UHGV virus genome: UHGV-1360180
DNA from: a virus
Direction: 5' to 3' (one strand)
DNA: 43,730 nt
Under the pieces are notes generated by a model. That model worked only from the letters and a program-made list of their open reading frames with translations. It was not told where the DNA came from and did no database searches. Positions 16,774-40,236 of the stretch are shown here, one piece after another (positions within the stretch are counted from its first letter, which is position 1; each line of letters opens with the position of its first letter). Made by a program: the position numbers and the translations under genes.

Positions 16774-17190
16774 TTACTTTTCCGATAGTTTCTCGCGGCT
16801 ATCTGTGTGGTGCTTAACTACGGCTTCAGCCAGTCCGCTGTACTGGTCGAACAGGTTAGCCAGCGCCTCTTTGCTGAACGGTTCGTCGAATGACCAACCG
16901 GTGACGATTTCCACGGCAAGCTGCTTGTTAAGGTCCATCACCCGCCAGCCCTTCTCATCATTATAGCGCGCCCAGTTATTCAGCGCCTCGCACTCTTTAT
17001 CTAATGGCGCGAGTTCTTCCGTAAGGCGTCGAATTGCCGTTGTGTAGGCGCGGCCTGCTCGAACGCCAGCATCGCAGTCTGGGCCAATGACCTGCAGCCA
17101 TTCACCGGAGTCTTTACCACTCGGCAGAAGGATAGGCATTTTAGTGCCAGCAGCATGACGGTCAGCAAAATAAAAATCAGAAAGTTTCAT
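16774..17190 (-). CDS. Tail assembly chaperone (G-like)
   Basis: 138 aa directly upstream of tape measure gene; acidic. Confidence 0.5.
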   Translation of the reverse strand: MKLSDFYFADRHAAGTKMPILLPSGKDSGEWLQVIGPDCDAGVRAGRAYTTAIRRLTEELAPLDKECEALNNWARYNDEKGWRVMDLNKQLAVEIVTGWSFDEPFSKEALANLFDQYSGLAEAVVKHHTDSREKLSEK

Positions 17191-17297
17191 TCTTTAATCC
17201 TTTGGTTAAGAGGTTACAGGTTAAGGTTGACGCGCCAGACGGGAACCACCCGCTTTTCGTGTGCGACACTAGGCGCAAACTTATTCTAGCACACTAC

Positions 17298-17330
17298 TTG
17301 CACACCCCAATATAATAGGGTACTATTCAC
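17298..17330 (+). promoter_or_regulatory. Conserved 33-bp promoter TTGCAC-N17-TACTAT with embedded AATAGGGTACTATT palindrome
   Basis: TTGCACACCCCAATATAATAGGGTACTATTCAC; near-identical copies at 26525, 29515 and, on the minus strand, 39602; 25 nt upstream of island gene at 17355. Confidence 0.5.
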
Positions 17331-17354
17331 CTGTAACTTACTGAGGAAATAATT

Positions 17355-17681
17355 ATGCGTAAATTAGTATTAGCTCTGGGGTTTATGTCTTTTGCTGCTT
17401 TTGGGTCTCCGTGCGAACAGGTATTTAGTGAATCTGTTCTTATTACTTCTGGCGTACTTGAGAAAGCCGACCCTACTATTGTAAAGGCGTTTAAGGACTC
17501 TACAGTTCGTGAATGTGAGGCCGCCGTAGAGGTCGGTAAATCGGGCCTACCCCCGCAAGCCGTAACGTACACGGTGATACGTTCGGTAGAGAAAAACGGA
17601 GACGCGTTTTACAGCCTACTGACGGCCACCCGCCTGCAAATGGTAATGACTGGGTGGGCGATAGGCGTGGAAAGTAAATAG
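17355..17681 (+). CDS. Small secreted/periplasmic protein
   Basis: 108 aa; N-terminal signal-peptide-like MRKLVLALGFMSFAAFG; RBS GAGGA; opposite strand to flanking tail genes. Confidence 0.5.
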   Translation: MRKLVLALGFMSFAAFGSPCEQVFSESVLITSGVLEKADPTIVKAFKDSTVRECEAAVEVGKSGLPPQAVTYTVIRSVEKNGDAFYSLLTATRLQMVMTGWAIGVESK

Positions 17682-17746
17682 TCGCCTTTATTTAAAGGAA
17701 TGCACTGTGGTTAAATAGGACAAATCCTAAACACGAGGACGTAAGA

Positions 17747-18877
17747 ATGGCCCAGAAGAAAATAACCGACGAACAGTTACAGGAAGAATTGAACGCCGGT
17801 ATGAAGAATATAGATATAGCTAGTAAATACGGCATCTCAGACCGCGTTATTCGTATTCGTAAGGCGAAGCTGGCTAAGAAAGGGGTCGGTCACGGGCGAG
17901 ACGTTAGTCACCTTGTGCCGGACGGCTACAAGATTAAAGGGACGTCGTCCCTGGTGGACGAGTTTGGCAACACTAAGTTGCAATGGGTTAAGACTGACAC
18001 TGACGCCGAACGTCAGGTCGAGTTGATGAAAGCCGTAATTGAGGGCATGAAGTCGGAGATTACGCCGGTCGCCCCTGTTAAAGCCGTTCGCGCCAAACGC
18101 GACGACAAACTACTCAATCTTTACACGGTATCTGATTTCCATCTCGGTATGCTGGCCTGGGCCGACGAGAGCGGCGACGACTGGGACATGAAGATTGCGG
18201 AAGACCTGTTCTCCCGTTGGTTCGATGCTGCATTTCAGAAAGCACCGGATGCGGGCACGGGCGTTATTAACCTGCTTGGCGACCTTGCGCACTTCGATAG
18301 CCTGGATGCGGTTACGCCAGCGAGTGGCCATGTTCTTGATGCGGACACGCGCTATCAGAAACTGGTCCGCTACATGATTCGCATGGTCCGCCGTGTTATT
18401 GATATGGCGCTGGTTAAGCATAAAAATGTTCGCTTGCTTATCGTGCAAGGTAACCACGACGAGAGTGGCATGATTTGGTTGGCTGAGATGTTCAGTACGC
18501 TGTACGACAATGAGCCGCGTGTGTTCGTCGATACGTCGCCGGATGTTTACAAGATGGTGCAACACGGCAAAACGACGCTGTTCTTTCATCACGGGCACAA
18601 GGCACGATTCGACGCTATCGAACCGGTTATGATCGCCAAGTTCCGTAAAGCCTTCGGCGAGAGTGTTTACAGCTACGCCCACGTAGGCCACCTGCACCAC
18701 CAAAAGATTGTAGAGAGCCGTAATATGGTTGTTGAGCAACACCGCACCTTAGCGGCTAAAGACGCCTACGCCTCTCGCGGCGGATGGATGTCAGGCCGTA
18801 GTGCAAATGTAATTACTTATAGCGCCGAATATGGTGAGGTCGCTCGTTTAACTATTTCACCGGAGATGCTGGGATGA
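17747..18877 (+). CDS. Metallophosphoesterase (SbcD/Mre11-like calcineurin-fold) with N-terminal HTH-like domain
   Basis: 376 aa; motifs VSDFHLG, GDLAHFD, GNHD, HHGH, GHLHH; N-terminal ~45 aa HTH-like (NIDIASKYGISDRVIRIRKAK). Confidence 0.6.
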   Translation: MAQKKITDEQLQEELNAGMKNIDIASKYGISDRVIRIRKAKLAKKGVGHGRDVSHLVPDGYKIKGTSSLVDEFGNTKLQWVKTDTDAERQVELMKAVIEGMKSEITPVAPVKAVRAKRDDKLLNLYTVSDFHLGMLAWADESGDDWDMKIAEDLFSRWFDAAFQKAPDAGTGVINLLGDLAHFDSLDAVTPASGHVLDADTRYQKLVRYMIRMVRRVIDMALVKHKNVRLLIVQGNHDESGMIWLAEMFSTLYDNEPRVFVDTSPDVYKMVQHGKTTLFFHHGHKARFDAIEPVMIAKFRKAFGESVYSYAHVGHLHHQKIVESRNMVVEQHRTLAAKDAYASRGGWMSGRSANVITYSAEYGEVARLTISPEMLG

Positions 18878-19104
18878 CTTCAAAATACAACCGAACAATG
18901 ACAAACACTCACGGCAGCACTATGACAGTAGACGTCTACGATGTGCTGCGCGCCTTCGATATCCGGGACCCGGCGTTACAGCACGCATTGAAGAAGCTAT
19001 TGTGCATGGGCTTGCGAGGCCACAAAGACACCGGAACAGACTTAGCGGAAGCAATCGAAAGTCTCGAGAAGTTACGGGAATACCGAAGTAACATTGACGA
19101 GTAA
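18874..19104 (+). CDS. Hypothetical protein
   Basis: 76 aa, ATGA-coupled to upstream gene. Confidence 0.4.
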   Translation: MTSKYNRTMTNTHGSTMTVDVYDVLRAFDIRDPALQHALKKLLCMGLRGHKDTGTDLAEAIESLEKLREYRSNIDE

Positions 19105-19109
19105 GAAAA

Positions 19110-19125
19110 GGCCCCGAAAGGGGCC
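19110..19125. terminator. Bidirectional terminator
   Basis: GGCCCC-GAAA-GGGGCC hairpin between convergent genes. Confidence 0.55.
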
Positions 19126-19131
19126 TTAGTT

Positions 19132-20304
19132 TTAGGCGTAGGTGATTCGTTGAATTACGATAGACGACTGGTACTGGTTGCCTGTGGACTGCCCTTCTAT
19201 ACTTTGGGTAATTGATTCCGGGCCAGATATTTCTGGCGTAACCGCCGTGAGTTCTGCGCGTTTCAGACTGAAAGACATAGCCCCGTTTACCCCCGCCAGA
19301 ATAGAGTTAATCTCTACCTGCTGTTCGTTGATAAACTTCTGAATCATCGCCATGTCGTACAGCTTGCCGGAGATGGAGAAGGTGTTGGCTGCACGGCCAC
19401 GTTCCACGAACGCAACGCTACTGTTGCCGAGTTCGAACTGTGCGGACGCGCCGTTGTCGTTGGTGATGGTCAGAGTATCGCAACGCAACGGCGTAGAGCC
19501 GTCAAACACAGACACATCTACAGACGAGAATGGCTCATCAGTAAACGTCACCTGCGAGAAGTCAGAACCTGCTGGCGGTGCAGAAAGAATCTCCTGACTC
19601 AGACCGATGAACGGGAAGCTACCAGTTACCATAGCGTTGACGGCCTGCTCGATGGTGAAACCGGAGATTTCCACGCCCTTAGTCAACATGTACGCGTCAG
19701 GGTTCCCGCACTGTCCTTTGAACCATGTCAGGATGGAGAACGTCTTACATGCGTTACCAGTTTCCAGCTTGTCGCCAGTTTTAGCGTCAGTGACTACAGT
19801 CTCTGCTGTCAGCGTGTGCTGAATGCCAGCACCCGTAACTACAAGAGCAGAAACCTCGGTCACGATAAACGGTTTTGCGTTGTCGCTGGTTAAGTCGGTG
19901 AACGCAATCAGGTCGCCAACTTCTACACCGTCAGTAATAAAGCTACCGGCAGCGCGGGTAAATGTTTTACCTGCTGGGGCAACCGTAATTTCAGCACCCG
20001 TAATCTCTACCCCAGCTTGCCACGTAGAAGTCATAGCACCTGCAAGGAAATCATCCTGGCTACGCGAGCTAAGTTCGATGGCATATTCCCCGCTAACCTG
20101 CTTGTTGCCGGTGCGGATTGATGTGGTTTCACGGCTCCCATCGAGTTCGTTGGAAGTCAGCGCATCGCGGGTTACGGCAGGAACGCCACCAGTGTTACGC
20201 AACGGAGACCATACCGGGTTACTTGGTGTTACGCCCGGGGTCACTTCCGCCACATAGAATTGCGCGGTATTCGCGCCCTTAAAAGGAGTTGTAGCCATAT
20301 TCAC
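19132..20304 (-). CDS. Major tail protein (putative)
   Basis: 390 aa; last gene before chaperone/tape measure genes, followed by strong terminator. Confidence 0.45.
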   Translation of the reverse strand: MNMATTPFKGANTAQFYVAEVTPGVTPSNPVWSPLRNTGGVPAVTRDALTSNELDGSRETTSIRTGNKQVSGEYAIELSSRSQDDFLAGAMTSTWQAGVEITGAEITVAPAGKTFTRAAGSFITDGVEVGDLIAFTDLTSDNAKPFIVTEVSALVVTGAGIQHTLTAETVVTDAKTGDKLETGNACKTFSILTWFKGQCGNPDAYMLTKGVEISGFTIEQAVNAMVTGSFPFIGLSQEILSAPPAGSDFSQVTFTDEPFSSVDVSVFDGSTPLRCDTLTITNDNGASAQFELGNSSVAFVERGRAANTFSISGKLYDMAMIQKFINEQQVEINSILAGVNGAMSFSLKRAELTAVTPEISGPESITQSIEGQSTGNQYQSSIVIQRITYA

Positions 20305-26524: not shown

Positions 26525-26557
26525 TTGCACACCCCAACATAATAGGGTACTATTCAC
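26525..26557 (+). promoter_or_regulatory. Conserved 33-bp promoter (TTGCAC-N17-TACTAT) with AATAGGGTACTATT palindrome
   Basis: TTGCACACCCCAACATAATAGGGTACTATTCAC; upstream of plus-strand island. Confidence 0.5.
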
Positions 26558-26594
26558 TTACACCAACAATGTTAACTTAAATGGGAGATGGAAA

Positions 26595-26756
26595 ATGAAA
26601 TTAGCAAAAAGAATTACCGTAAATACTAATTTAAGTTCGAAAAATGGGGACAAACGTAAGTTCCGCCGTAAAATGCGTCAGATTGTTAAACTTGACTACA
26701 TTTTCGAAGAAACGATTGCACTAGTGGCAAACGCTGCCCGTAACTGGGGGCGCTAA
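26595..26756 (+). CDS. Small basic protein (53 aa)
   Basis: Manual translation MKLAKRITVNTNLSSKNGDKRKFRRKMRQ...; RBS GGGAGATGG; first gene of island. Confidence 0.3.
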   Translation: MKLAKRITVNTNLSSKNGDKRKFRRKMRQIVKLDYIFEETIALVANAARNWGR

Positions 26757-26757
26757 T

Positions 26758-27222
26758 ATGATGTATGCAATTTACGTAGCGGCGATATGCGCTGCTAACT
26801 TTTCGGTAACTGTGTTTGGTCCGTTAGCGACACCGGTAAATGCCTTTCTACTTATTGGGCTTGATTTCGTAATAAGAGATAAGTTGCACGAGAGGATTGG
26901 CGTACAAAAAATATTCATACTGATACTAGTAGCTGGCATTATAAGTTTCTCCATAAACCCGGCAACCGGAAAGATTGCTGTGGCAAGCGTTGTTGCCTTC
27001 GCTTGTGCTGCCATCCTGGATGCCGTTGTTTACCAGGCACTAATCAATAAAAAGTGGCTAGTTAAGTCAAATGTAAGTAATACCGCGGCCTCGGCGGCGG
27101 ACTCTTTTATTTTCCCACTAATAGCTTTCGGTTCTTTCATGCCGCTAGTCGTACTGGGCCAATTCGCGGCTAAGGTTTTTGGCGGAGCTTTGTGGTCTTT
27201 CTTGTTGAGGAAAATTAAATGA
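26758..27222 (+). CDS. Polytopic membrane protein, candidate queuosine-precursor transporter (YhhQ/DUF165-like)
   Basis: 154 aa, ~4 hydrophobic helices; translationally coupled to TGT-like gene; family assignment from recall, not a search. Confidence 0.4.
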   Translation: MMYAIYVAAICAANFSVTVFGPLATPVNAFLLIGLDFVIRDKLHERIGVQKIFILILVAGIISFSINPATGKIAVASVVAFACAAILDAVVYQALINKKWLVKSNVSNTAASAADSFIFPLIAFGSFMPLVVLGQFAAKVFGGALWSFLLRKIK

Positions 27223-27953
27223 CGGTGCATTACCACGGGGGTCCTATTTGGGGTGGGGATGAGCTTATAAAAGCATTGTACCGTGGGGGTGGCGCTCTGG
27301 TGTCATATGCCCGCCCTGACCAAATACAAAAAATCGCCGCCTTGAGATGTAAATTAGTGTTGGACAACGGAGCTTTTTCGACATGGAAGAAAGCACCTGA
27401 CAACATAGACTGGAGCGCCCATTGGGCAGGATATTATGATTTTGTCGGAGAGTGGTTCAGTCGTATTGAGTGGTTCATTATACCGGACGTTATAGAGGGC
27501 ACGGAGGAAGAGAACGACGCATTAATAGAAACTGTCCCAGATTGGTTAAGGTCTAAGGCAGTCCCGGTGTGGCACAGTGACGAAAGCATAAGAAGACTAG
27601 TAAAGCTGTGCCGTGGGTTCAATCGGGTAGCGATAGGTTGCTGCGGACCGCACAGGGCCATACGGTCTAAGTCATGGGAGAAAAGAATGGACCAGGCGTT
27701 TAATGCGGTTTATAGAAACAGAAAATTGGATGTAAAACTCCATGGCCTTAGAATGCTGGATGGGAGGGCTCTAAGCCGTTATCCTTTCGACAGCGCTGAC
27801 AGTACAAACGTAGCTATAAATGTGCCAAAAACTAAAGCAAGACTACCTAACATAACAGACAAACTACATCGAACCGCTATAATGAGGCACACCATAGAAA
27901 TGGTTAAACCCCCTACAGTAACGGAATGGTTACTTAAAACTAAGGCCCCTTAA
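27219..27953 (+). CDS. tRNA-guanine-transglycosylase-like protein, candidate DNA 7-deazaguanine transglycosylase (DpdA-like)
   Basis: 244 aa; LVLDNGAF resembles TGT substrate-binding motif (TDSGGFQ); acidic IIPDVIEG; adjacent to transporter-like gene. Confidence 0.5.
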   Translation: MTVHYHGGPIWGGDELIKALYRGGGALVSYARPDQIQKIAALRCKLVLDNGAFSTWKKAPDNIDWSAHWAGYYDFVGEWFSRIEWFIIPDVIEGTEEENDALIETVPDWLRSKAVPVWHSDESIRRLVKLCRGFNRVAIGCCGPHRAIRSKSWEKRMDQAFNAVYRNRKLDVKLHGLRMLDGRALSRYPFDSADSTNVAINVPKTKARLPNITDKLHRTAIMRHTIEMVKPPTVTEWLLKTKAP

Positions 27954-27964
27954 CGGGGCCTTTT
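27944..27964. terminator. Bidirectional terminator
   Basis: GGCCCC-TTAAC-GGGGCC-TTTT; overlaps stop of TGT-like gene. Confidence 0.55.
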
Positions 27965-28427: not shown

Positions 28428-29524
28428 TATTCCCCTTTCAGATAATCAGCAACACGTTTATCGAGTTCCGCCATCTGCTTAAGCGTCAGCGGATTCCCGA
28501 AACCATCTACAGATATTACGCGAAACTCTTCCGGCGATATACCGCTGTTACGGAAAATCTTACCGCGAACAGGGCCGAGCGCCTGGTCCTGGAACCATGC
28601 CGGTTGCTGTTTCAGGAACTCGTAATAGGTTGTGTCTGCGCTTACTTGTGTGCCGCCGTCCGCGCCCTTAGCAGCGCGTTTTGCCCCTTTATCGAGGAAG
28701 TCGAACTCTGAACTGATTACCGGAGCCGTACACGACCGACAGTTCGGATGGGCTGGTGGCATCGGCCCTTTACCGATCTCCCACGTCATTCCGTCTCTGG
28801 CTCTGCAAATCGTACTGGTACGGCTATCAAGCGTTGACACCCACTCGTACTTCTCGATGATGTCGTCGTTCTGGCGGTACGTCTCGTTACGGGCTTCGTT
28901 GGACACATGGGACAGGGCAGTGCGGATTACGGTAGCCGCGTTACGTTCAGAGATATCAGCCAGGCCACCGGCACCAACAACATTCTTTACAATCTGCCGC
29001 GTTGTCTGACCCTGAACAAAGCCCATCTTAACGCCGGTTACCAGGCGCGATACCTCTGTTTCACCCCAGCCCGACATCAGCTTAGTGAAGTCAACAGGCT
29101 TGTCACCCAACGATAAGGGTTGAAACTCGGCCGCGGCCCACACCTGCTCGGCAGTAGGCGTAACAAATTCCGCGTCTACGTTGGCGGTAAGTGTCTTTGC
29201 GTTCCACTCAGCCTCGTACGCCGCCAGTTCCTTAAGGTCTTCTGTCAGTTTTGTTTGCCAGTCGCCTGTAAGTCCGGTTAACGCTTCTTCAAGGTCGCGT
29301 AACAGTTTATTCAGTCGCGCAGTGCTGCGCCCATCGTCGCCGAATAGCAGAACCTGCCGTTTGATTTCATCTCGCATTTCCTGAATGAACGGCGCGAGGT
29401 CTTTCACCTCACCGGATGCGGTGCGTTGCAGCCATATCTGGTGGCTGATTAGGGATGTAAGTAAGCTCATAAGCCCTCCTGTCGTATCGACAGTGTAACG
29501 CATAAAAATAATATTTGCAGACAC
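28427..29524 (-). CDS. Head morphogenesis protein (minor head protein family, putative)
   Basis: 365 aa directly downstream of portal gene, the usual position for this family. Confidence 0.45.
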   Translation of the reverse strand: MSANIIFMRYTVDTTGGLMSLLTSLISHQIWLQRTASGEVKDLAPFIQEMRDEIKRQVLLFGDDGRSTARLNKLLRDLEEALTGLTGDWQTKLTEDLKELAAYEAEWNAKTLTANVDAEFVTPTAEQVWAAAEFQPLSLGDKPVDFTKLMSGWGETEVSRLVTGVKMGFVQGQTTRQIVKNVVGAGGLADISERNAATVIRTALSHVSNEARNETYRQNDDIIEKYEWVSTLDSRTSTICRARDGMTWEIGKGPMPPAHPNCRSCTAPVISSEFDFLDKGAKRAAKGADGGTQVSADTTYYEFLKQQPAWFQDQALGPVRGKIFRNSGISPEEFRVISVDGFGNPLTLKQMAELDKRVADYLKGE

Positions 29525-29547
29525 CAGTATAATAGGGTACTATTCAC
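29515..29547 (+). promoter_or_regulatory. Conserved 33-bp promoter (TTGCAG-N17-TACTAT variant) with AATAGGGTACTATT palindrome
   Basis: TTGCAGACACCAGTATAATAGGGTACTATTCAC upstream of single-gene island. Confidence 0.5.
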
Positions 29548-29585
29548 GTATAGGTGCTATTGAACGGAAAGAGAGGTTTACTAAA

Positions 29586-29900
29586 ATGATTGATTATCGT
29601 GCTCGCGCCACAAAAGCGGAACAAGAGAACGCTGTTTTAAGAGATAAATTAGCAAAAAAGCCTAATTTTGCTTGGTTCGTAGAGCAGGTAAGGTCTATGC
29701 TTAAAATACGTGCTGACGCACCTTTTAACGAAATAATAGCTAAGATTAAGGTATTGCGCGACAATCAAGAGCTATATAGAGAGGGTGCCGCAGTTCGTAA
29801 GTCCAACGATGAAGATGCAGAAAGATACTTCAATGAGGGTGTAGAGGAAGGAAAAAGAATGGAACGCGATAGAATTAAAAAACTAATAGGAAAAGTCTAA
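29586..29900 (+). CDS. Hypothetical protein (single-gene island)
   Basis: 104 aa, charged/helical; RBS GAGAGG; own promoter and terminator; opposite strand to flanking portal/head genes. Confidence 0.45.
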   Translation: MIDYRARATKAEQENAVLRDKLAKKPNFAWFVEQVRSMLKIRADAPFNEIIAKIKVLRDNQELYREGAAVRKSNDEDAERYFNEGVEEGKRMERDRIKKLIGKV

Positions 29901-29920
29901 GGCCCCTTATGGGGCCTTTT
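29901..29920. terminator. Bidirectional terminator
   Basis: GGCCCC-TTAT-GGGGCC-TTTT. Confidence 0.55.
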
Positions 29921-29922
29921 CT

Positions 29923-31392
29923 TTACTGTTGTGGTTGCGCCGACTGCGGAATCTCCCCAGATACCTGAGTAACAGCACCCAACGGCAGCGGTGCATCCTC
30001 AATAGCGTTCTGAATGTCCTCGTCTGTCCAGTCAGTTACGCCCGCCTTGCGTAATGCCGCGTAGTAAGCAGTAGCCGGTAGCAGGCCTGCGTTAATATCA
30101 GCCATCCACTGAGCGCGGTCCTGCGCGGTCATAGGTTGCAGGAAGAACTCCATATTCAGTTTGAACTCAATCTCTGTGCCTTCGCGCAATCCGAGCATCG
30201 CAGCTACCCAGCGCAATGCATCGGTATATGCCATGCTTACATTACGTGCAATTGTCGCCATAACGGACGTGTCAGCGCCGCGTTGCAGGCGGGCAGATTC
30301 AGCGGTGATTTGCTGTGTCGGGGTGATAAGCTGCGCACCAATCTGGATGGCCTGATTCTCTTTATCCAGCATGTTCTGCTTGGCGAGGTTGTTCTCTCCC
30401 GCCTGGACCAGAAACGCATTGCCGCCGTAGCCGATGTTATGGCCAGAACGCGACCCCATGCGCACACCGTGTGGGTTGGCTTCTTTCCACTGCTCCAGGC
30501 TCATATTCTCGCCCGGGGCGATGAACAGAGTGGGCTGGCCCACAACGAAGCTGGACTCCTCATTGTCCGCGCTGTTGCGGAAATGCCCGATATTAAGCTC
30601 AGCCAACGGCAGCAAAGGCGCATCGTCGATGGTTGCGTCGTTGTTGCTCGCCCCGATGAACGTGAACGGGATTTTTCCGCGTAACTGTTCGCCGAGTTCC
30701 GGGAATATTTCGATTACTTCGCCCTGAGCACCACCTTCGGCGTCGAAGCGGTAAATGCGCTGACGGTATCGTCCGTCAATCAAATCAAGAACGCGATACT
30801 GCTCACCGAATTTTGTTTCGAACTCTGCGCCAGGTTCGGAGTATTCCCATACTTCGCGCAACACGACCATTGTCACGCGGTTAACCGAACCGATGCGTGT
30901 CAGCCGCCAGTTGATGATGTTCTCTGCGGTGTAGAATGCGATTACCGGATTTAATAATCCTGCGTTCTGTTCTGCCGCCGTTGCCGCGGCTGTCTCCGGG
31001 GCGTCCACCAGCAACCCGCCACGGCCAACCGAGTCAACCTCCATCAGCGTATCCTGCGCGTGCTGCCACAGCCCGACACCGGAGCCGTCGGCGTTACGTA
31101 ACAGATACTCAAGCTCAGGCGGAATAATCTGCTCGGGGTCTTTACGCATCACTGACCCAACCATCCCCGCCAGGGTGCGCTTGGTGAAGTTGTAGCAGAT
31201 AGCGCCGTTCTCGTATTCTTCCTGGCGCTGTGCCGCGTAGGTCGGGTCCGGTTCGTTCTTCCCGACGTTGCGCAGGTAGCGAATAAGGTCGCCCTCCAGC
31301 GCGTGGCGTACCTTCTGCCATTTATCAAAGTGATGCAGCCATTCCCGGTGTTTTGTCTTAACACCCTGATTCTGACCGTTCATAGTTAACAT
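29923..31392 (-). CDS. Portal protein
   Basis: 489 aa immediately downstream of terminase large subunit. Confidence 0.6.
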   Translation of the reverse strand: MLTMNGQNQGVKTKHREWLHHFDKWQKVRHALEGDLIRYLRNVGKNEPDPTYAAQRQEEYENGAICYNFTKRTLAGMVGSVMRKDPEQIIPPELEYLLRNADGSGVGLWQHAQDTLMEVDSVGRGGLLVDAPETAAATAAEQNAGLLNPVIAFYTAENIINWRLTRIGSVNRVTMVVLREVWEYSEPGAEFETKFGEQYRVLDLIDGRYRQRIYRFDAEGGAQGEVIEIFPELGEQLRGKIPFTFIGASNNDATIDDAPLLPLAELNIGHFRNSADNEESSFVVGQPTLFIAPGENMSLEQWKEANPHGVRMGSRSGHNIGYGGNAFLVQAGENNLAKQNMLDKENQAIQIGAQLITPTQQITAESARLQRGADTSVMATIARNVSMAYTDALRWVAAMLGLREGTEIEFKLNMEFFLQPMTAQDRAQWMADINAGLLPATAYYAALRKAGVTDWTDEDIQNAIEDAPLPLGAVTQVSGEIPQSAQPQQ

Positions 31393-38114: not shown

Positions 38115-38251
38115 CTACCCCGACTAGCAGCGATTTAGTGTCGCCGTTGCGCACCGAAGTGCTACCCAGTATTTCGTAAGCGTCTACCAGTTCGCCTAAA
38201 GTCCAGCTACCGTACCAGCCCATCTTCTGTCTCTCCCCTCATCTGTGTATA

Positions 38252-39601: not shown

Positions 39602-39634
39602 GTGAATAGTATCCTATTATGTTGGGGTGTGCAA
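39602..39634 (-). promoter_or_regulatory. Conserved 33-bp promoter (TTGCAC-N17-TACTAT), leftward early promoter
   Basis: Reverse complement TTGCACACCCCAACATAATAGGATACTATTCAC. Confidence 0.5.
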
Positions 39635-40004: not shown

Positions 40005-40033
40005 TTGATTTCCCATTATTCGCAATGTATACT
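40005..40033 (+). promoter_or_regulatory. Sigma70-like promoter TTGATT-N17-TATACT (rightward)
   Basis: Upstream of HTH gene; spacing 17. Confidence 0.4.
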
Positions 40034-40065
40034 TGGTTTCGTTAACTGATAATGAGGGTTTGAGA

Positions 40066-40236
40066 ATGACACAGAATGAGGTAGCGGAGCGTATAGGAGT
40101 TACTCGTCGCACGCTGAATAACTGGTTAAAGAGCGGGAAGTTCCCGGATTGCTGTATTCGCATTATGGGTCGCCGTCAGCCAGGTACGTTTGACCCGGAG
40201 AAGGTGGAAGCGTGGATTAAGGAGAACGTGAAATGA
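40066..40236 (+). CDS. Helix-turn-helix DNA-binding protein (excisionase/AlpA-like fold)
   Basis: ORF track 40033..40236 (TTG); likely ATG at 40066 after GAGGG. EVAERIGVTRRTLNNWLKSGKFP HTH signature. Confidence 0.5.
   Translation: MTQNEVAERIGVTRRTLNNWLKSGKFPDCCIRIMGRRQPGTFDPEKVEAWIKENVK

Follow-up and report, generated by a model that had tools for sequence, protein, structure and literature searches.

A predicted helix-turn-helix-fused metallophosphoesterase of the PHROG 704 (phage T1 gp16) family in a counter-oriented cassette among phage tail genes

Organisation and transcription signals of the cassette

The virus genome UHGV-1360180, analysed here as one stretch of 43,730 nt (the window), carries a cassette of three plus-strand genes whose central member encodes a 376-residue metallophosphoesterase (MPE) with an N-terminal helix-turn-helix (HTH) domain. 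The cassette lies between the genes for the tail assembly chaperone and the major tail protein, both on the minus strand (Table 1). A preliminary description of this DNA, made from the sequence alone, had reported that three plus-strand open reading frames (ORFs) split the minus-strand tail operon at this place, and the ORFs are present as reported. The 376-residue protein is a typical member, in its usual place, of a known and widely annotated phage family.

A megablast search with positions 17200-19200 matched 265 phage records, headed by the Kagunavirus isolates LM08P2 (93%) and BASEL phages Bas70-76 (~90%), which were followed by K1H/K1G-type phages and Salmonella Jersey-type phages. Since its best matches are Kagunavirus isolates, the window is assigned to a Kagunavirus (Guernseyvirinae) genome; its orientation is opposite to that of the Bas71 record. 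Phage PTXU04 of the CRISPRi-ART work, considered as a further Kagunavirus, was set aside, the paper giving no sign of this and describing 92 coding sequences, a 2,198-residue polyvalent protein and limited relation to known proteins.

The ratio of non-synonymous to synonymous substitution rates relative to related phages is 0.06 for the 108-residue gene and 0.01-0.08 for the 376-residue gene, and the 76-residue gene differs from that of Bas71 by 21 synonymous and no non-synonymous changes. The substitution patterns mark all three cassette ORFs as real genes under purifying selection. The third gene is predicted to be translationally coupled to the MPE gene through their ATGA overlap.

Table 1. 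Features of the cassette and its flanks (window coordinates).
Feature	Position (nt)	Strand	Residues	Basis or remark
Tail assembly chaperone gene	16774-17190	-		Flank of cassette
int-alpA-like structured element	17232-17276	-		Rfam RF02996, below gathering score
Promoter-like motif of cassette	17298-17330	+		Repeated motif; putative promoter
Candidate leftward promoter, GTTACA-17-TATATT	17309-17337	-		Generic scan, 9/12 matches
108-residue ORF	17355-17681	+	108	Signal-peptide-like N-terminus
HTH-fused MPE ORF	17747-18877	+	376	T1 gp16 / PHROG 704 family
HTH of MPE	17747-17881	+	1-45	Three model helices at residues 8-44
Beta-hairpin and helix of MPE	17927-18058	+	61-104	Model
MPE core	18101-18874	+	119-376	Motifs, model
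76-residue ORF	18874-19104	+	76	ATGA overlap with MPE gene
Bidirectional intrinsic-terminator hairpin (predicted)	19108-19127	both		Fold z-scores, consensus scan
Major tail protein gene	19132-20304	-		Other flank of cassette

The cassette is preceded by a motif, TTGCACACCCCAATATAATAGG, which occurs four times in the window at up to three mismatches (17298+, 26525+, 29515+ and 39634-), against zero copies expected, each copy being located 54-71 nt upstream of a same-strand ORF. It is likely to comprise a -35 element TTGCAC (17298-17303) and a -10 element TACTAT (17321-17326) separated by a 17-nt spacer. A perfect TATAAT is found at 17311-17316, merely 7 nt from the -35 element, and a palindrome, AATAG-N4-CTATT (17314-17327), overlaps the motif. 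The motif is kept in K1H, Bas71 and Jerseyvirus, and a -10-like hexamer is retained at the 17-nt spacing. The Jerseyvirus copy carries a 3-nt deletion, yet TTGCGT-17-TATTAT is again available, which argues that the conserved property is the promoter geometry. This motif corresponds to the conserved cassette promoter of the preliminary description, with its promoter function predicted from repetition and conservation. Because the copy at 39634 heads a run of small early ORFs, the promoter may reasonably be taken as early-type. A generic sigma-70 scan did not call the site at 17298-17330; it returned five promoter sites in the region against 2.4 expected, and its leftward candidate, which overlaps the cassette promoter and faces the tail chaperone and tape-measure genes, is a weak assignment.

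A second class of promoters in the window, TTGACA-N17-TATAGT, is found at 1762, 5415 and 43088 on the plus strand and also at 38246, 39597 and 43048, and its spacer contains the same AATAG-N4-CTATT palindrome. The sharing of this putative operator suggests that a single phage or host regulator controls both promoter classes; a candidate is the 67-residue HTH_17 protein encoded at 40033-40236.

The hairpin at the end of the cassette, AAGGCCCC-GAAA-GGGGCCTT, has a stem of 8 bp, six of them GC, with fold z-scores of -4.8 on the plus strand and -4.1 on the minus strand. The consensus scan calls it on the minus strand, where it follows the major tail gene and has the better T-tract. The hairpin is predicted to end both the plus-strand cassette transcript and the minus-strand transcript of the major tail protein, so the terminator previously ascribed to the cassette is upheld but is bidirectional. 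Hairpins of the same type close the two other islands of the window (27940-27963 and 29899-29920). T1 also has a terminator directly after its major tail gene, and therefore the cassette is seen, with fair probability, as a conserved, separately transcribed unit at a natural break of the Guernseyvirinae tail operon.

Several traits of the cassette are moron-like, namely its own promoter and terminator, its orientation counter to the surrounding operon and its cargo, which varies among relatives (PNKP phosphatase and kinase, HNH, Ant or Imm). Because the MPE stays constant across relatives while its neighbours are exchanged, the MPE is the fixed anchor of the cassette, and the accessory or moron-like behaviour is confined to the flanking slots.

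The 376-residue protein and its family

The calcineurin-like superfamily is characterised by five ordered motifs (DxH, GD, GNH[DE], H and GHxH), and all of them are present in the 376-residue protein as DFHLG (130-134), GDLAHFD (178-184), GNHD (235-238), HHGH (281-284) and GHLHH (314-318). A homologue search among 1.8 billion cluster representatives returned 4,631 related clusters at the 50% identity level. In an alignment of 95 of these, with 32-51% identity, D130, H132, G178, D179, N236, H237, H282, G314 and H317 are invariant in all 95 sequences, and H182, H284 and H315 are conserved in at least 90%. The complete motif set noticed in the preliminary description is thus matched by nine invariant residues. 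The Pfam scores remain below the gathering scores (Metallophos, 21.5 against 27 bits; Metallophos_2, 18.6 against 21.5 bits), and the protein is a divergent member of the superfamily that is placed by its motifs and fold.

The AlphaFold2 model built with that alignment (pLDDT 92.2) contains the beta-sandwich MPE fold. The nearest solved folds are PolD DP1, SbcD and Mre11, at 12-17% sequence identity, so that nucleases are, in the predicted model and by a modest margin, the nearest solved relatives. A match to a non-catalytic fold or a loss of metal-coordinating residues, either of which had been named beforehand as evidence against an enzyme, was not observed; the residues of the metal site are kept. 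A single-sequence search of the PDB with the 376-residue protein gave nothing relevant. The matches of the family profile to PDB sequences were weak throughout, at the N-terminus to GerE/LuxR-type HTHs including RhlR (E 0.04) and at motifs I-II to Mre11/SbcD of Thermotoga maritima (E 0.17), in which GDflH is aligned to GDLLH. The histidine of motif II that is typical of Mre11 (GDLFH type) is present as the conserved H182, aligned with the T. maritima GDLLH.

For GerE, the N-terminus of the window protein reaches 19 bits and stays below the threshold. In homologues the scores pass the Pfam cut-offs, with 40.6 bits for Sigma70_r4_2 and 36.1 bits for GerE, and by these matches the N-terminal segment, earlier described as HTH-like, is confirmed as a predicted sigma-70 region 4/LuxR-type HTH.

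The PHROGs profile match is to phrog_704, "DNA repair exonuclease" (E 2.7e-167), with residues 3-375 aligned to profile positions 1-389 of 390, which assigns the protein to PHROG 704, the family of phage T1 gp16; the name of the family is itself a prediction. The window protein shares the HTH, hairpin and MPE architecture and the invariant residues of this family, and it is 42-47% identical to the Drexlerviridae members among the matches listed.

The family was found by tblastn in 2,054 phage records, 1,959 of them with nearly full-length matches, which include Guernseyvirinae, Drexlerviridae (T1 gp16), Dhillonvirus, Klebsiella and Pseudomonas T1-like phages, Rhodobacter Casjensviridae and Vibrio phages; versions without the HTH occur in Campylobacter phages. 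The label Rountreeviridae/Minhovirus on the record of Salmonella phage SE129_1NRH is probably wrong, as both gene order and sequence are of the Jersey type (Guernseyvirinae). In a pangenome study of 2026, the "DNA repair exonuclease" counted as persistent (508 of 522 Drexlerviridae) and immediately preceded the lysis cassette, and in Drexlerviridae lacking the SH3 gene a polynucleotide kinase and a deoxynucleoside monophosphate (dNMP) kinase were the commonest genes directly after it (PMC13164509). The position before the lysis cassette differs from that in Guernseyvirinae, where the gene belongs to a cassette that runs counter to the tail genes enclosing it. In T1-like phages, Dhillonvirus, Jedunavirus and a Pseudomonas phage, the family gene ends the replication operon (3' end) or directly precedes lysis or terminase genes.

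The gene order in K1H and G AB-2017 is 108-residue gene, MPE, a 161-residue protein and a 184-residue protein, the 161-residue product consisting of a PNKP phosphatase domain only (HAD_PNKP, E 6.7e-20) and the 184-residue product being a dNMP-kinase-like P-loop protein (phrog_139). The same order of MPE, phosphatase and kinase is found in Pseudomonas phage PsgS01F, with identities of 45% (MPE) and 53% (kinase). In other Guernseyvirinae the cassette also contains an HNH endonuclease or an Ant-like gene. This distribution and synteny form the pattern of a core gene of DNA or nucleotide metabolism, not that of a patchy counter-defence gene.

Probable function of the metallophosphoesterase

The MPE probably acts on DNA. 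A stand-alone DNA nuclease fits best, because of the intact two-metal site, the Mre11-type histidine, the DNA-binding module, the core-gene status and the phosphatase/kinase synteny. In the proposed mechanism, the MPE gene would be transcribed by the host RNA polymerase from the early-type promoter, the N-terminal module would bind DNA, and the two-metal site (D130, H132, D179, N236, H237, H282, H315 and H317, plus the Mre11-type H182) would cut it, with the MPE acting as a stand-alone nuclease in DNA or nucleotide metabolism. As to its task, the breakdown of host DNA to feed nucleotide salvage is the foremost, if tentative, guess; it would account for the genes of a PNKP-type 3'-phosphatase and a dNMP kinase that immediately follow the MPE gene in relatives. 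In T4, gp46/47 and a dNMP kinase serve the reuse of host DNA, and an MPE of the window type with dNMP kinase neighbours resembles this salvage system. The T4 case is also mentioned in a recent paper (10.64898/2026.07.21.739742).

The predicted nuclease A1 of T5 may be the closest functional analogue of the window MPE. According to a 2026 preprint (10.64898/2026.04.02.716235), no other pre-early factor is both necessary and sufficient for the degradation of host DNA, and A1 is a predicted metallophosphatase resembling nucleases of double-strand-break repair and polymerase proofreading. Like the window protein, A1 is a stand-alone phage MPE with the same structural neighbours, and it is expressed early. 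A second likeness is to the MPEs of mycobacteriophage cluster A (A10ZJ24 gp48 and Bxb1 gp47), which are early phage proteins with all five motifs; for A10ZJ24 gp48, phosphodiesterase activity and damage to host DNA are reported (PMC12287305).

A number of observations weigh against such a host-DNA nuclease. A1 belongs to a separate family, phrog_1745, is 556 residues long and is matched by hhalign only around motif III (probability 19%), and the cluster A proteins are ~255 residues long and have no HTH, Bxb1 gp47 being matched with a probability of 5.7%; since the similarity in both cases is at the superfamily level only, membership of the window MPE in the family of either Bxb1 gp47 or T5 A1 is ruled out. 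The similarity to Mre11/SbcD, T4 gp47 included, is not significant (E 0.17), only ~185-192 residues align, and the window protein differs in its added N-terminal HTH and in the capping domain and Rad50-binding helices, which were not found C-terminal to the catalytic core. A gene for a Rad50/SbcC partner, noted as absent in the preliminary description, is not annotated in the near-identical Bas71, and judged by length and correspondence to Bas71 no long ORF of the window is a candidate, although not all window ORFs were scanned. The window itself lacks the phosphatase and kinase neighbours, their slot being filled, as in Bas71, by the unrelated 76-residue gene. The shared promoter motif is the sole indication of early timing, literature searches found no assay of any member of the PHROG 704/T1 gp16 family, and a nuclease of host DNA offers no explanation of how the phage DNA would be spared.

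The DNA acted upon could also be that of the phage, with the MPE trimming or opening ends, hairpins or blocked termini of replicating or concatemeric DNA in the manner of Mre11/SbcD. This reading, which is possible but rather less probable than the breakdown of host DNA, has the same fold neighbours (DP1, SbcD and Mre11) in its favour, together with the core-gene status in Drexlerviridae and the fact that, in T1-like and other phages, the gene closes the replication operon or directly precedes lysis or terminase genes; it is opposed by the missing Rad50/SbcC partner and capping domain and by the link to a dNMP kinase, which suits salvage better than repair. Moreover, the window encodes a phrog_69 exonuclease, unrelated to the MPE, next to a gp2.5-like annealing protein, and T1 has RecE and Erf, so the role of recombination exonuclease is already taken in these phages. 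The MPE was also considered as the partner exonuclease of the phage annealing protein, and this is ruled out since the phrog_69 exonuclease fills that role. The archaeal PolD small subunit DP1 is a proofreading 3'-5' exonuclease; the window protein, unlike DP1, has no DP2 partner and has a hairpin as its beta module rather than a full OB fold, and T1-like phages encode no polymerase.

An end-healing enzyme, i.e. a 2',3'-cyclic phosphodiesterase or 3'-phosphatase that repairs RNA or DNA cut by host nucleases together with the neighbouring PNKP-type phosphatase, is unlikely. The recurrent adjacency of a HAD_PNKP phosphatase to the MPE gene speaks for it, and the protein can be likened to the MPE domain of Clostridium thermocellum Pnkp or to lambda phosphatase, this being a chemistry that MPE domains are known to carry out (PMC2190708 and PMC3675462). 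The motifs of PPP-type and lambda phosphatases (GDxxDRG and GNHE) and the PPP fold were not found in the 376-residue protein.

The preliminary description went furthest in proposing a special, island-borne anti-defence factor, and this part is an over-reach that finds no support, the protein belonging to a common family (2,054 records, 508/522 Drexlerviridae) with PNKP/kinase synteny. Its fold, HTH and missing partner stand, and the underlying observation is correct, well beyond chance. It is unlikely that the MPE is a counter-defence enzyme of whichever kind, either a calcineurin-fold phosphodiesterase acting on immune signals or a DNA-targeted nuclease chiefly silencing host defence genes, as claimed for mycobacteriophage gp48. 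The known immune-signal enzymes Acb1 and Apyc1 have 2H phosphoesterase or metallo-beta-lactamase folds, in contrast to the calcineurin-like fold of the window protein. The narrower proposal, that the MPE destroys the nucleotide signals of CBASS, Pycsar, Thoeris or type III CRISPR, is very improbable, given that the gene is near-universal in Drexlerviridae and Guernseyvirinae rather than patchy, that the protein carries a DNA-binding-type HTH and nuclease folds rank first in the structure comparison, that a literature search on calcineurin-like phage counter-defence phosphodiesterases yielded none of the PHROG 704 family, that BASEL Kagunaviruses are reported to be highly sensitive to restriction-modification and variably sensitive to Old, and that PADLOC gave no match, which says little as its library models defence-system proteins and not phage counter-defence.

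Accessory genes, other islands and wider meaning

The 108-residue protein is limited to Guernseyvirinae (22 clusters). Its N-terminus consists of MRK, a 14-residue hydrophobic core and the sequence AFG/SPCE (the stroke marking the predicted cleavage site), of which MRK, the core and AFG/S are conserved in both genera, and it is therefore regarded as a putative Sec-type signal peptide of a protein predicted to be secreted. Two cysteines are invariant. The model shows a confident all-helical mature domain, with residues 1-15 disordered, and has no informative structural neighbour. In some Jerseyviruses the slot holds instead a true Imm_superinfect protein (PF14373, E 3.5e-15). Because the 108-residue protein is predicted to be exported and early, and occupies a slot that elsewhere holds a superinfection-immunity protein, an envelope role such as superinfection exclusion may be suggested, with low confidence.

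The 76-residue protein matches the C-terminal part of phrog_2452 (E 2.4e-36) and is found in 774 phage records, standalone or as the C-terminal domain of ~250-residue proteins. It occurs alone in the early regions of Drexlerviridae and shows no linkage to the MPE outside Guernseyvirinae. An origin as a deletion remnant of the K1H kinase was rejected, since the two proteins are not similar and the DNA of the slot shows no homology; the 76-residue product is a widespread small protein in its own right. In Nonagvirus FritzHoffmann, the 252-residue product of bas20_0033, encoded between QueE and Gat-QueC in a deazaguanine cluster, ends in the same domain. A link of this domain to deazaguanine modification is possible, and the window phage also has a DpdA island.

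This second counter-oriented island (26525-27963, plus strand) has the same promoter motif and a GC hairpin of the same type at its end. It encodes a 53-residue ORF, a 154-residue Vut_1/YhhQ-like transporter (PF02592, E 6.8e-10) and a 244-residue DpdA-like "queuine tRNA-ribosyltransferase" (phrog_887, E 4.6e-84), and looks like a 7-deazaguanine DNA-modification module that would import its own precursor. Bas71 has a single 67-residue ORF at this position. The third island (29515-29926, plus strand), with the same motif and hairpin, contains one gene of 104 residues (phrog_10768) and is inserted between the portal and head-morphogenesis genes, where Bas71 has only a 36-bp gap.

The int-alpA-like element adjoins the cassette without being part of it; it belongs to the leader of the tail chaperone gene, whose start lies 42 nt further downstream. 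The match to RF02996 covers model positions 4-54 of 71 and scores 27.7 bits (E 0.0063) against a gathering score of 35.8. No other non-coding stretch is as well conserved between Kagunavirus and Jerseyvirus, and the core of the element was found in 50 IMG/VR contigs of Guernseyvirinae size. Compensatory changes are seen at three pairs, and 98% of the cells pair, against 33-55% in slid controls. The element may affect the expression of the chaperone and tape-measure genes. Positions 17232-17276 were also considered as a plus-strand terminator, for which the folding energy is unexceptional (z = -0.9), and the minus-strand int-alpA-like element is the better reading. The remainder of the leader (17191-17231, minus strand) contains, ahead of the Shine-Dalgarno sequence (GUCAACCUUAACCUGUAACCUCUUAACCAAAGGA), four (U/C)AACC repeats that Jerseyvirus has kept.

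The copy of the MPE gene described here is ordinary, being well conserved and in its usual place, and its value lies in the family as a whole. Few unstudied enzymes of small virulent siphophages are as widespread as PHROG 704/T1 gp16, which belongs to the core genes of T1-like phages and is present in more than 2,000 genomes under a predicted name only. The degradation of the host chromosome by T1 was defined genetically in the 1980s. If T1- and Jersey-type phages break down host DNA by means of the MPE, this would close a gap in the biology of T1, and the family would join T5 A1 as a second stand-alone Mre11-like nuclease for host takeover, with consequences for the risk of transduction and for defence systems sensing the products of DNA breakdown. 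If instead the counter-defence reading were true, T1-like and Jersey-like phages would carry an immune antagonist in one of their commonest, so far unstudied genes.

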